Assembly: GCA_965216875.1 (NCBI GenBank) | Contig: OZ244207.1 | Coordinates: forward strand, 1,408,001-1,472,000 | Origin: Rubripirellula sp. | Lineage (GTDB): Bacteria > Planctomycetota > Planctomycetia > Pirellulales > Pirellulaceae | Direction: 5' to 3' | DNA: 64,000 bases | Part shown: positions 39,000-44,008 of the stretch, one piece after another | Layout: each line of letters starts with the position of its first letter | Numbering within the stretch: the first letter of the stretch is position 1 | Notes under the pieces: model-generated | The model's database searches: none | Seen by the model: the letters and a program-made list of their open reading frames with translations, nothing else | What the model was told of the DNA's origin: nothing | Made by a program: the position numbers and the translations under genes

Positions 39000-41195
39000 T
39001 TACTTGGCACGAACGTAGATCTGTAACTTCTTTGTGGTGTAGTTCTTCGCGTTGCCGGAAAACGTCCAGTCGCGGTTGCTTCCCGAACTGTTACCGATTC
39101 CGATGTCTGCGTTGCCTTCGGCGGACCAGTGGTTGATCGCAAGAACCGTTTCTTTGGCACCATGATTGTGAATCTGCATGCATCCGTACCCGTCGACTGG
39201 ATCGGAGGGCTGGTCGCCGAAATCGTAAGCGCCCGAGGAAGCGCCAGGGATCTTGGCACCGTTTTGTTGGCCGTAATTGTTGGGCCAAAACTCAATGTTG
39301 CCAGTTGAAATCGAGTTGCCTTCGGTCACAGCCGCAGTGTTGCTTAGCACATCAAGGTTATTGACCTTGGTCCGAAAGTGAGCCTGACTGGCGGCAACGG
39401 GGATTCCGATCTTCTTGATGTCGTCGGTAAACGCATCCATCGAAACGAAGACTCGCTGATCACCTCGATCCGCCGATTCAAGGTGCAGTAGATACCCGAC
39501 CCGATCAAAACGGTCGACGTTGGCGCTCTTGTTGACGTCGTACTTGATCTTGCTGCCGAGATTGGCCAAGTCAAGTTCATAGACGAGTTGATAGTCACGG
39601 TCGACATCGATCAGGCTTAGGAAGTCGGGTTCGTTGCCACCGCGACAGGCTCCAACGGGTAGGCCCGTGCCGCCGGTCAAGTTCGGCTCAGCTAGTTTGT
39701 GCCAAGCGAAGCGAAAACCACTCGGCTCGGTCGCTTGGTCCGAATGCAAGACAACGCTGTCGCCGTCGATTTTGGCCTCGGCTTTGACAAAACCTCGCGA
39801 ACCCTTGCCAATCACTTCAAAGTGAGTTGGTGGTTTGCCATCGCGGGTCTTTAGTCCGCCTGCGGTTTTGGCAAAGGTGACGCGCAATTGGTTACCACTT
39901 GGTTCAACCGATTTGACCGTGGGGTATTCGGCGACCACGTCGTCGCGTCCGTAGTCCCGTTTGAGTGCCCAAAGGGCAAGGCGGTTACCGACGTCTTGTT
40001 TGTTTGGCGGGTGAATATCGTTAAGCGTTGCGATGTCGTTGATCACGACCATCGCCGTGTTGGGAACCTGTTCGACGGCTGCTTGTGCTTCCCAGAAACG
40101 CGCCAGGACAGTGGGGTCTTCGTTGCCGTATTGGTACGGCGCGATTTGTACGTAGTAGAAAGGAAAGTCACCCTGTCCCCAGAGCTTGCGCCATCCGCCG
40201 ATCAGGGCTTTCTTCTTTTCGAAGTAGAGCATTCCTTCGCCATGGTTGGACTCGCCTTGGTACCAAATGGCACCTCGGATCGGGAAGCCAACGATTGCGT
40301 GCAGCATGCCGTTGTACAACATCGTCGGGTCTTGATGGCTTTTGTAGGGCTGCATGGAACTTGGGAACGTCGGGCTTGCTGCGACGGTCGTTGAGTTCTC
40401 TAACGAGGTTCGTGCCTTTTCCAACCACGCCGACGTCGCGTTGATGTGGTCGCCGAGGCTTTTGCGATAAGCGTCTGTACCAGGCGTTCGCCCCAAGATC
40501 GAAGAGTGGATGCTTGAAAGCGCTTCGACCGATTGGAAGCCAATCGGTGGCGTCCACGGTTCAACTCGCGTCCCGCCCCAAGATGCGTTCACGAGTCCGA
40601 TGGGAACGCCCAGGTCTTTTTGCAACCGCCGAGCCATGAAGTATCCGACGGCCGTGAAGTTGGCGACGGTGTCGGGCGAGCAAACTTGCCACTCCGCTTC
40701 AAACTCGTTCAGTGGAACGGTCGACGGACGCCGTGGAACTTTGATGTGGCGGATCAGTGGTTGGTCACCATCGGCGATTTCTGCTTTGGCGTTGCTGCTG
40801 CTGCGAACCGACCATTCCATGTTCGATTGTCCCGAACACAGCCAAACTTCACCGATCAGGACATCGTTGATTTTGACGGTGCTGTTACCGGCGATGACAA
40901 GCTCGTGAGACTTGTCACTCGCATCCAATGCGGGTAGCTCGACGCGCCATTTTCCGTCCTCGTCAGTGGTCGTTGTGGCCGAAGCTTGTCCAAGCGTGAC
41001 CTGGACATGTTCCTGTGCGTCGGCCCAACCCCAGATGACAATGGGCTTCTTCTGTTGAAGCACCATGTGGTCGCCAAAAACGGACGCAACACGGACGTCG
41101 GCGTGAGCGACGGAGGTGATGCCGAATGTAGCCAGGAGAGTCAGCAGAAGGTGGACGGCGCTACGCTTGCGCAGTGTTAGACAGAGACGAGCCAT
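39000..41195 (-). CDS. Sialate O-acetylesterase (SASA) family protein with extra C-terminal domain
   Basis: [40 protein letters not shown]. Confidence 0.92.
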
Positions 41196-41515
41196 GTTGG
41201 GGCGCTCCGGTAAGCAAGAGAGAAAGGGAGTTGCAGGCGGGTGTATCTAGGGGAAGGAGGATTATTCTAGCTACCCATTCGCCGCGTTGGTGCGCTCGCG
41301 GAGTTGGCGATCAATAAGAAGCCAATCTAAAGACAATGAATCTAAAATGGTTTTGGCGAAGAGGACCGTGACCGTAGATAAGATTTTATGTCTGTGTCGA
41401 AAGCCATAGCGAATCCTTTTGACTTCCGATTCCGAATCGCCCTAAGGGCGTATGCGCATCGCCAGCGCTGATGACCTTGGTTTGGTCTTTTTACTAGTCA
41501 GGGGGTCCAAGCTTC

Positions 41516-41544
41516 TTGACAGGGGGAAGTAGCGGCGCTATTCT
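41516..41544 (+). promoter_or_regulatory. Sigma70-type promoter
   Basis: TTGACA (41516-41521), 17-nt spacer, TATTCT (41539-41544). Confidence 0.75.
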
Positions 41545-41550
41545 AGTTAC

Positions 41551-41656
41551 ATGCTGACACGGAAGAGATTCCTGTGATCAGTACTGCAAATCACATGCGG
41601 GCAAAATGGAATGTGATCGGCAAATTGGGCACGCATAATAACGCGTGCCTTTTTTT
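41551..41656 (+). ncRNA. Candidate small RNA (~105 nt), family not recognised
   Basis: Lies between the promoter above and an intrinsic terminator. Two internal hairpins, one capped by a GAGA (GNRA) tetraloop. No long ORF. Confidence 0.6.
41628..41656 (+). terminator. Rho-independent terminator of the candidate sRNA
   Basis: GGCACGC-ataataac-GCGTGCC followed by T7. Confidence 0.8.
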
Positions 41657-42556
41657 ATGATGCCGACTGTTCCTGATGAATCTAATCGACTCATCAATAA
41701 ACAAAATTGCCACGCCATCGGGACGAGAATTCCATTGGGGCACTATGGAGTCCGACTCATCCTTGATGGCGTGGCTTTTTTTGTTTTATCTCTCTGCCAT
41801 TCACACTCACCAAATGTTGGTTAGTCGTTTCGGCTCGTTCTTGCCACAGTCGTTGTCCTCTTTCTTTTCATGAAAGCTGGCAAGCCTGTTCTTCGAAGAA
41901 CTCACTCAACCTTAAGTGGACAACTAAGCTGCCGGTGCGCCACGACTTTCGCGTCAGTGGTTTTGTGGAGGGTGAACCCTGTTCACCACGCGTCACCACA
42001 GCGGAAAACACGAGGTTTTCTGTCGCGTCACAATGTGATGATAGCGACTAAAAAGATCGGATTCAATCCTTAGGTCATTTAGGAAAATCTCGCTGGTTTG
42101 CTGGTGGGGGTCGGCCAGTGCCACCCGTTTCAGCTATTTCGTTTTGGTACTAGCTAGTGGTAGGGGGCTCTGCTTTCCGCTGTTGGCGCAATGAGGCGAA
42201 CGCTCCTCAATCTGGGGAGCCGTTTGGGAGCGCGGCGCAAGAGTCGTCTGACCCTCAGAAAAAACTTTGTCGCGGACTCGCTCACCAAAGTGTCCAGCCC
42301 GATGCACCGATGGGAGCCAGCCCCGTTCGGCTTGCCCGATCCGTCTTGGCAATCTGAAGAAGCGGGCACGAGTCCTGGCAGCTCGCATCTGAAAAGGGGC
42401 CATCAACGAATCGAACGCTCCGGACTGGGATGCGCACCTTCGCAATTTGCCAGTCATTTTCCCGGCATCGCGTCGCCTCCTCAGATTTGCCCTCGTCACG
42501 TAAGCTGTGGTTCGATCGAGGCGGGTCGGTGCACAAAATAAGAGGAAAGTAGTTCG

Positions 42557-44008
42557 ATGGCACACACAATCGTGATTTTCGGTGCGTCTGGTGACCTGAC
42601 CAGCCGGAAGTTGATCCCCGCCCTTTACCGTCTTTTCATCAAGGGACGGCTTCCCGAGGGATCCCGGATTGTGGGTGTCTCACGAAGCGCTTACGAGCAT
42701 CAGCAATGGCGTGATTCGCTTCGCGAAACCACCGCGAAGTTCAGCGGCGATGCGTTTGACAACGCTTCGTGGGACCGATTCAGCGAAAACATCTACTACC
42801 AACCGGGTGACATTAAAGCGCCCGAGGACTTCAAGAAGCTGGCTGAATTCCTTGAGGGAATTGAGACCGAAGCGAGCGCTGGGCGCGTTTACTATCTCTC
42901 GACCATGCCTCAGCTGTACGAGGAGGCGATCAAGCAGCTTGGTGCAGCGGGGCTCGCTGATGACTGCAACGGATATCGCCGGGTCATCATCGAAAAACCA
43001 TTCGGCACGGACCTGAAAACGGCCCAAGCGTTGAATCAGTCGATTCACACGGTATTCCGCGAAGATCAGATCTACCGTATCGACCACTATTTGGGCAAAG
43101 AAACGGTTCAGAACATCTTTGCATTGCGGTTTGCCAACAGCATTTTTGAGCCGATTTGGAACCGCAACTTCGTCGATCACGTCCAGATCACGGTTGCCGA
43201 AGAAGTCGAAATCGGCCGCCGTGCAGGCTATTACGATACGTCGGGAATCCTGCGAGATATGTTCCAAAACCACATCTTGCAATTGATGATGATTACCGCG
43301 ATGGAGCCGCCCGCCCGGTACGACGCATCGTTGGTTCGGGACGAGAAGGTGAAGGTGCTGCACAGCATTCGCCAGATGACCGGCGGCGATTTCGCCTCGG
43401 ACACCGTTCGCGGCCAATACGCAGGCTACCTTGAAGAGGAAGGGGTGCCGGAGGGAAGCGAGACCGCGACGTTCGCAATCTTGAAGTTGTATTGTGACAA
43501 CTGGCGTTGGCAGGGTGTTCCGTTCTACCTGCGAAGCGGCAAGGGGATGTCTTGTCGGACGACGCAAATCGTCATTCAGTTCAAGCAGGTTCCGCATCTC
43601 TTGTTTGCCGACCGCGCTCAGGAACCGCTCGGCAATCGGCTGGTGATTCAGGTTCAGCCCGCCGAAGGCATTCAAATGCACTTCGAAACCAAGGTGCCCG
43701 ATTCAGGAATGGACACGCGAACGAGTACGCTCGACTTTTCGTTCCAAACCTCATCGGGCGAATCGATGCCGGATGCCTACCAACGTCTGCTGCTCGATTC
43801 GATGCAAGGTGACGCGAGCTTGTTCGCCCGTAGCGACGAAGTCGAATTGGCCTGGGGAATCATTGACCCGATCATCGCCGCCTGGCGAAGCCCAGCCGCT
43901 CCGTCGTTGTTTCAATACCAATCGGGCTTGTGGGGACCGACTGAGGCAACGGATTGGATGCGTCAGCAAGGTCGTGAATGGTTCGACGTCTGCCCAGTGA
44001 TTCGTTAG
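42557..44008 (+). CDS. zwf: Glucose-6-phosphate 1-dehydrogenase
   Basis: IFGASGDL, EKPFG, RIDHYLGKE, RDMFQNH, RWQGVPFYLRSGK. Confidence 0.97.
   Translation: MAHTIVIFGASGDLTSRKLIPALYRLFIKGRLPEGSRIVGVSRSAYEHQQWRDSLRETTAKFSGDAFDNASWDRFSENIYYQPGDIKAPEDFKKLAEFLEGIETEASAGRVYYLSTMPQLYEEAIKQLGAAGLADDCNGYRRVIIEKPFGTDLKTAQALNQSIHTVFREDQIYRIDHYLGKETVQNIFALRFANSIFEPIWNRNFVDHVQITVAEEVEIGRRAGYYDTSGILRDMFQNHILQLMMITAMEPPARYDASLVRDEKVKVLHSIRQMTGGDFASDTVRGQYAGYLEEEGVPEGSETATFAILKLYCDNWRWQGVPFYLRSGKGMSCRTTQIVIQFKQVPHLLFADRAQEPLGNRLVIQVQPAEGIQMHFETKVPDSGMDTRTSTLDFSFQTSSGESMPDAYQRLLLDSMQGDASLFARSDEVELAWGIIDPIIAAWRSPAAPSLFQYQSGLWGPTEATDWMRQQGREWFDVCPVIR

Follow-up and report, generated by a model that had tools for sequence, protein, structure and literature searches.

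A predicted species-specific small RNA in the variable slot of a probably phage-derived cassette in Rubripirellula

The gap upstream of zwf in a Rubripirellula genome raises the question of whether it holds a small-RNA gene of its own and, if so, what kind of RNA this would be. In the window, by which we mean the whole 64,000-nt stretch of DNA that was analysed, the gap lies between the divergent gene of an SASA-family esterase (PF03629; 39000-41195, minus strand) and zwf, which encodes glucose-6-phosphate dehydrogenase (42557-44008, plus strand). An earlier note had described here a promoter, two hairpins, a terminator, a GCAAA triple and an 8-codon open reading frame, and the coordinates of all of these proved correct. 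The promoter, termed P+, is of the sigma70 type (41516-41544, plus strand), with TTGACA at 41516-41521, a 17-nt spacer and TATTCT at 41539-41544 preceded by CGC, and its predicted start is near 41551. The terminator, T1 (41627-41656, plus strand), pairs GGGCACGC with GCGTGCC in a stem at 41627-41650 and is followed by seven T residues up to 41656; together they delimit a predicted 106-nt small RNA, RNA1 (41551-41656, plus strand). Exact TTGACA-N17-TAnnnT sites number only 10 in the 8.26-Mb genome, and a terminator lies 35-300 nt downstream of 3 of 47 promoter-like sites genome-wide, among which the window site scores highest, compared with 333 of 20,000 random positions. We consider it highly probable that this is a true promoter-terminator transcription unit.

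The fold of RNA1 lends further support to this unit. The 106-nt RNA has a predicted energy of -40.8 kcal/mol (z -4.99), which none of 200 shuffles equalled, and with the terminator removed it still reached z -3.4 (1 of 500 shuffles) and -3.9 (1 of 300 shuffles), values below -3 being attained by 2% of 150 random genome windows. This signal in the body is carried by hairpin 1 (41552-41583, plus strand), which has a GAGA tetraloop (z -4.2, 0 of 500 shuffles), and not by hairpin 2 (41590-41617, plus strand), whose 7-bp stem and loop with GCAAA and AUGGA appear in the predicted fold at the position first proposed, but which is not significant by itself (z -0.9, 83 of 500 shuffles). The 5' arm of T1 is paired at a probability of 0.91-1.0 and gains no alternative partner once the 3' arm is blocked, and no competing antiterminator fold, a feature of riboswitches and leader-peptide attenuators, was found at T1 in the predicted ensemble. 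As the earlier note had supposed, the unit matches no Rfam 15 family: in a search at a permissive threshold, none reached its gathering score across 40800-42400, where the five matches obtained (E 2.8-9.7) were far below cut-off, and eight related loci searched likewise gave three weak matches, none at cut-off. None of the 100 tRNA and tmRNA calls made by ARAGORN in the genome falls on RNA1.

To place the unit in context, we compared the window's own genome (G000; 99% complete) with a congeneric relative (G002). Four loci in these two species of one genus share a cassette of which the unit is one part. The window and locus L004 of G002 form one orthologous pair, both beside the same esterase gene (66% identical), which serves as the synteny anchor, and L002 and L005 form a second pair, each flanked by the same genes. 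The order is the same at all four: P+, a folded slot, a second hairpin with its U-run (termed the G-loop hairpin), and, 79-255 nt further on, a convergent promoter, P-. The unit is therefore not self-contained as had been claimed, since the cassette also includes the second hairpin-terminator and the convergent promoter, and the suggested link to zwf does not hold, since zwf adjoins the cassette in this genome alone and is not its neighbour in either congeneric genome. In the third congeneric genome (84% complete), zwf has another neighbour, and neither the cassette nor the G-loop hairpin gave a match.

The two promoters are well preserved among the cassettes. At P+, CTTGACA and CGCT are kept at all four loci, the -10 element of L002 being a weaker match. 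In the window, P- reads TTGAAT-N17-TATCAT (42038-42066, minus strand; predicted start near 42031), and the consensus TTGAWT-N17-TATCnT is present at all four loci; six such sites occur in G000, two of which are its two cassettes. Near P-, a TCACCAC direct repeat with a 10-bp period (41983-41999, plus strand) is a candidate site for the arm-like protein described below, and pairs of TCAYYAC 10 bp apart were found near P- at all four loci, a count made without a null model. A type I toxin-antitoxin pair would have a conserved short hydrophobic frame opposite the small RNA. Judged by eye, a minus-strand frame that crosses the G-loop hairpin starts with MPQW(I/N)SRPDG at all four loci but ends after 13-50 codons and is non-hydrophobic, and a hydrophobic frame on the plus strand is stopped in L004. 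Between T1 and the G-loop hairpin, a small TGATGA/TCATCA hairpin (41663-41700) folds better on the minus strand (z -4.3).

In contrast with this fixed frame, the RNA body differs from locus to locus. L004 keeps the promoter, the T1 stem, the G-loop hairpin and P-, but its body shows no significant similarity to that of RNA1 (local p 0.09, global p 0.33), and the slots of L002 and L005 are likewise unrelated (local p 0.34), one having T1 and the other lacking it. Of 61 relatives searched with the DNA of 41480-41800, two matched, solely through the hairpin at 41709-41785, and the 106-nt body itself had no match in any of them. Thus, where the earlier note had looked to homologs for a covarying structure in the body, the structure is not conserved, and only the promoter, the terminator and the downstream hairpin are kept. 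T1 is present in the slot at three of the four cassettes, giving predicted RNAs of 106, 120 and 44 nt, and is missing from L002; its stem stands behind the same promoter type at two loci of G002 and in a provirus locus, L045. In 301 family genomes, the combination of promoter and T1 turned up at three sites, in two of the genomes, and the controls gave none. The distance from P+ to the U-run ranges from 233 to 268 nt across the four cassettes, and the slot bodies were more stable than shuffles (z < -2.8) in four of five cases, the L004 body folding weakly (z -1.9, 17 of 300 shuffles). The cassette has a narrow range, and because its carriers are two species only (2 of the 301 family genomes), swapping of the slot is inseparable from fast drift. 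We conclude that the unit likely makes a small RNA, most plausibly a species-specific one, which occupies the first and variable slot of a cassette of probable phage origin.

The G-loop hairpin (41709-41785, plus strand), absent from the earlier note, combines a second terminator with what appears to be an RNA motif with the apical loop YGGGGCAHY. The region 41660-41800 folds with z -5.2, and six copies were found, three in each genome (in the window and at G000:C1 4419541-4419631 and 3192989-3193075; in G002 at C3:1248948, C5:1870864 and C5:475687), of which two, one per genome, were placed outside such cassettes by a model search. Four copies end in a U-run, and the other two have an A-run before the hairpin and another hairpin with a U-run after it. 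In an alignment of the six, 93.9% of cells pair, 6 of 22 pairs are compensatory with both sides changed, and the loop GGGGCA is invariant; the structure was drawn from these same six sequences, and most of the compensations come from two divergent copies, implying few independent events. The plus strand is strongly preferred (96 bits versus 36 on the minus strand), and the window and L004 copies are 92% identical compared to 66% for the neighbouring protein. Outside the genus, the hairpin was not found in the 148 other genomes searched. Among 150 genomes, model R2 matched four, the two outside the genus lacking the loop, and the matches of model R1 outside the genus were, among those listed, generic terminators. 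Scans with the loop pattern returned 11 metagenome stretches, all chance matches without the hairpin, and two chance matches among viruses, where the G-loop pattern gave one match without the structure. The G-loop hairpin is a better-supported new element than RNA1, and these alignments and searches suggest that it is a covarying RNA motif not previously described.

In L002, L004 and L005, P- is followed by two genes, one for a membrane protein with an integrase-arm-like domain (arm-like protein; 183-242 aa, with a sheet-helix domain at the N-terminus and, by prediction, a membrane helix) and one for a small Cys protein (111-132 aa, two conserved Cys and a hydrophobic N-terminus). Such pairs occupy L004:1765-2611, L002:369-1290, L005:389-1316 and G000:C1 2679386-2680220; no remnant of the pair was found in the window across 41800-42556. 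Over its first 53 residues, the arm-like protein can be aligned to the N-terminal end of a tyrosine integrase (probability 90.9%, E 1e-6). Neither cassette protein is named by Pfam or PHROGs, and the search for longer proteins, the Atlas search and the PDB fold search returned nothing significant for them. Integrase arm sites are short direct repeats, and by analogy we would guess that the arm-like domain binds the TCACCAC repeats. The layout of the gene pair recalls that of membrane-anchored regulator pairs. The arm-like protein family is present in 7 of the 301 family genomes, with the G-loop hairpin absent in the distant ones, and scans for the proteins confirmed 0 of 133 metagenome stretches and 0 of 90 viral ones. 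In two genomes of another genus, genes distantly related to that of the arm-like protein are preceded by a conserved promoter and a long hairpin RNA (L020:935-1065; L021, reverse, about 935-1065).

A third gene pair in G000 lies within a prophage at tRNA-His that has integrase, tape measure, capsid and portal genes. A promoter-RNA-terminator unit of 130 nt, directed away from the integrase, precedes this pair by about 400 nt. The provirus locus L045 holds a related unit with a T1 stem (L045:462-628), which points away from its integrase as well; both this unit and that of the prophage (L023; G000:C1 2678828-2678995) are also directed away from a small upstream gene and have no Rfam match. The first hairpin is conserved between these two prophage RNAs (p < 0.002), indicating that units of such build can be selected RNAs. 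However, when a model was made from the pair, it recognised the terminator of RNA1 alone (8 bits, E 1.3) and missed the body, which limits the likeness of RNA1 to build and terminator. Model R3 matched, among 150 genomes, only G000 and one genome with the L045 element. In viral scans, the terminator pattern gave eight matches, one of them informative (L045), and the first-hairpin pattern gave two, the L045 contig and one chance match in coding sequence. A DNA search of 301 genomes with the prophage RNA yielded 22 short matches (E 0.001-0.05), with a promoter-like site in 0 of 14 inspected. No phage genes were found near the window cassette, and the case for a common phage origin is one of architecture, T1 stem and gene pair only. 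On these grounds, the cassette is probably derived from a prophage-type element.

Evidence bearing on expression comes from a single study (run X6), which was found through its holding this stretch and which we guessed to be RNA; none of the sequencing runs with this stretch is on record as RNA. X6 contains a 488-nt contig identical to the window over 41533-42020, with the strand not given, that bridges both T1 and the G-loop terminator. As a control, 19 kb around the tmRNA gene were examined, where one contig lay within tmRNA at a depth of 2539 with adapter at its end, and the rest of the region held three scattered contigs at depths of 2.6-4.5. This pattern indicates that X6 behaves as RNA from this strain and that the cassette region is likely transcribed, and the idea that the contig is a restriction fragment was dropped after this control. 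Runs X13, X14 and X16 contained no tmRNA contig of this strain. Relative to the predicted starts, the contig opens 18 nt ahead of that of P+ and ends 11 nt short of that of P-, positions that come from one study and were given no weight, as were the parts of 41000-42700 that X6 leaves uncovered. RNA across T1 is read-through, a counter-transcript or both, and is compatible with or without a 106-nt species; the 106-nt RNA, the read-through RNA and the counter-transcript are all model predictions.

The explanation we favor, a plausible one that we hold tentatively, is that RNA1 is a species-specific small RNA whose unit throttles read-through and which an antisense transcript counters. Polymerase would start at P+, and most transcripts would end at T1 after 106 nt, with read-through past T1 producing an RNA of about 233 nt that ends at the G-loop hairpin; with most transcripts stopping and the rest reading through, T1 would throttle the conserved RNA to a fixed degree. 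From P-, a counter-transcript of roughly 500 nt would arise that is complementary to both RNAs and sets their level by pairing with them. The arm-like protein, supplied in trans here from two paralogues, may tune P- through the TCACCAC repeats. RNA1 itself would act by base-pairing without Hfq, for which no PF17209 match was found in G000, and its body would be species-specific cargo, neither a conserved sponge nor a peptide message. A bolder form of this explanation, in which a domesticated phage cassette is an Hfq-free RNA switch with a fixed frame and exchangeable small-RNA cargo, a GGGGCA-loop RNA as output, the convergent promoter as off-switch, and a membrane-anchored arm-domain protein with a secreted Cys partner relaying an envelope signal to P-, strikes us as improbable.

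A less likely alternative, although the strongest of those considered, is that RNA1 is an independent trans-acting small RNA or anti-sRNA, in which a fixed promoter and terminator enclose a variable 5' domain whose pairing partner is a host mRNA or another small RNA, the G-loop hairpin being a separate gene. Its own strong promoter and terminator, its stable 5' hairpin and the first hairpin shared by the prophage RNAs are consistent with this, as is the combination of a conserved 3' end with a variable 5' part at the window, L004, L005 and L045, a combination also described for the E. coli anti-sRNAs (PMC4104026). However, a perfect-match scan found no match of at least 15 nt elsewhere in the genome and thus no target, the predicted fold leaves little single-stranded seed, and the slot of L002 lacks a terminator. 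The anti-sRNAs in question, AgvB (EcOnc01) and AsxR (EcOnc02), derive from E. coli O157 prophages, where convergent small-RNA pairs occupy moron sites, and, being short with a variable 5' and a conserved 3' part, they are the nearest described system to RNA1 (PMC4104026). According to that source, they measure 51-60 nt with 14-18 variable nt, whereas about 76 nt vary in the RNA1 cassette, and they are Hfq ligands with shown targets, whereas the RNA1 host has no Hfq match and the opposing transcript is only predicted. Unlike AgvB and AsxR as described there, the RNA1 cassette includes a conserved second hairpin and the gene of the arm-like membrane protein, and the window copy, with its convergent promoter, lies outside a prophage, although a similar unit is in one. 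The resemblance is therefore at most one of layout.

It is also conceivable, and we think unlikely, that the locus is a relic, namely a promoter-terminator frame orphaned after loss of the gene pair, from which an RNA is made with an inert body. The loss of the gene pair without remnant and the lack of conservation in the body are as this would predict, and a second strain (run X5), which has the whole region, differs at one position within 41516-41785, in the T1 loop, which is not a significant deviation (P 0.10). On the other hand, the fold of hairpin 1 exceeds chance, no damage is seen in either promoter, in T1, in the G-loop hairpin or in the repeats, and the G-loop hairpin shows 92% identity where the neighbouring protein shows 66%.

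Even less likely is the suggestion that RNA1 is a protein sponge, most plausibly for CsrA through ACGGA (41559-41563) and AUGGA (41606-41610), or for a GCAAA-binding protein. In its favor, G000 has seven CsrA matches over the cut-off, the two ANGGA motifs are about 47 nt apart, and an AAUGGAAUG stretch is found again ahead of one of the G-loop hairpins of G002. However, hairpin 1 sequesters the first GGA (unpaired probability at most 0.04), the second is only partly open, and the other bodies hold 0-3 GGA. The three GCAAA copies (41586, 41601 and 41620) are in the linker and loop positions assigned to them, but the predicted ensemble leaves just one of them, at 41601, entirely unpaired. Had the motif been named beforehand, its recurrence would have p 0.004; some 5-mer recurs three times in 21% of 20,000 shuffles, giving a post-hoc p of 0.21, and this, together with 0 copies in all four other leader bodies, speaks against the GCAAA sponge that had been proposed. 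CsrB and RsmY/Z, sponges for CsrA/RsmA, consist of a promoter, several hairpins and a terminator, and RNA1 is like them in this build and in the CsrA genes of its host, but has only two GGA, neither in an apical loop, which are not conserved, and no Rfam match. As neither GCAAA nor the peptide MLTRKRFL is kept, both the sponge and the micropeptide readings are weak. The latter, by which RNA1 is a leaderless message for MLTRKRFL (41551-41577, plus strand) or a leader peptide controlling T1, is the least likely of all and the frame probably incidental, for although its ATG is at the predicted +1 and the syntenic L004 RNA has MATRQK, sharing M-x-T-R (noticed post hoc), the MATRQK frame begins about 35 nt into its RNA, no such frame exists in L002, L005, L023 or L045, none is at +1 at the three other cassette loci, and the frame lies inside a stable hairpin with no alternative fold tying it to T1.

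Among other known RNAs, lambda pR'-tR' combines a strong promoter and a short terminated RNA with read-through downstream, a build like that predicted for RNA1. The c4 antisense RNA of phages is in Rfam (RF01695) and gave no match to RNA1. The planctomycete motif Rhodopirellula-1, which like c4 appears in PMC2864571, has no Rfam number in the table there and was therefore compared by eye; RNA1 lacks its arms AAC.A..GAU..GAAC and UUAUC..CGUU as given in the supplement rows. Later motif collections were covered through Rfam. The prophage RNAs STnc6030 and OOP of BTP1 and IsrJ of Gifsy-1 (PMC7067206) have, like RNA1, their own promoters, an accessory position and an antisense partner, which for RNA1 is predicted, but neither strand of the RNA1 unit overlaps a phage gene, the window copy is outside a prophage, and a link in sequence was compared through Rfam only. 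Literature searches, mostly of open-access papers, returned nothing on this unit or on mapped small RNAs of Planctomycetota. Small RNAs of this phylum are barely described, and Hfq has no match in this genome. The locus is a small and convenient system for study, with two strong facing promoters, a terminated RNA whose body changes from one species to the other and an undescribed hairpin that appears to covary. If the reading of a swappable slot is true, it would show phage-derived frames seeding new small RNAs.

A few further RNA elements of G000 were noted along the way. A kissing interaction between the G-loop and a UUGCCCC loop present in two further short units was considered post hoc and rejected, as GC-rich controls paired equally well; neither unit turned up in G001 or G002. 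Two homologous promoter-terminator RNAs of about 60 nt, each with two hairpins and C-rich loops, are located at G000:C1 2696612 and 5603109 (both minus strand), one of them lying ahead of the portal gene of the tRNA-His prophage. An RNA pair at G000:C1, about 476080-476110 and 476420-476445, contains TGGGGCAC and ATGGGCA, which resemble the G-loop and the T1 5' arm, perhaps by chance. ARAGORN also identified two large tRNA arrays at G000:C1 591000-608012 and 628016-632638, with about 20 and 31 genes, respectively.
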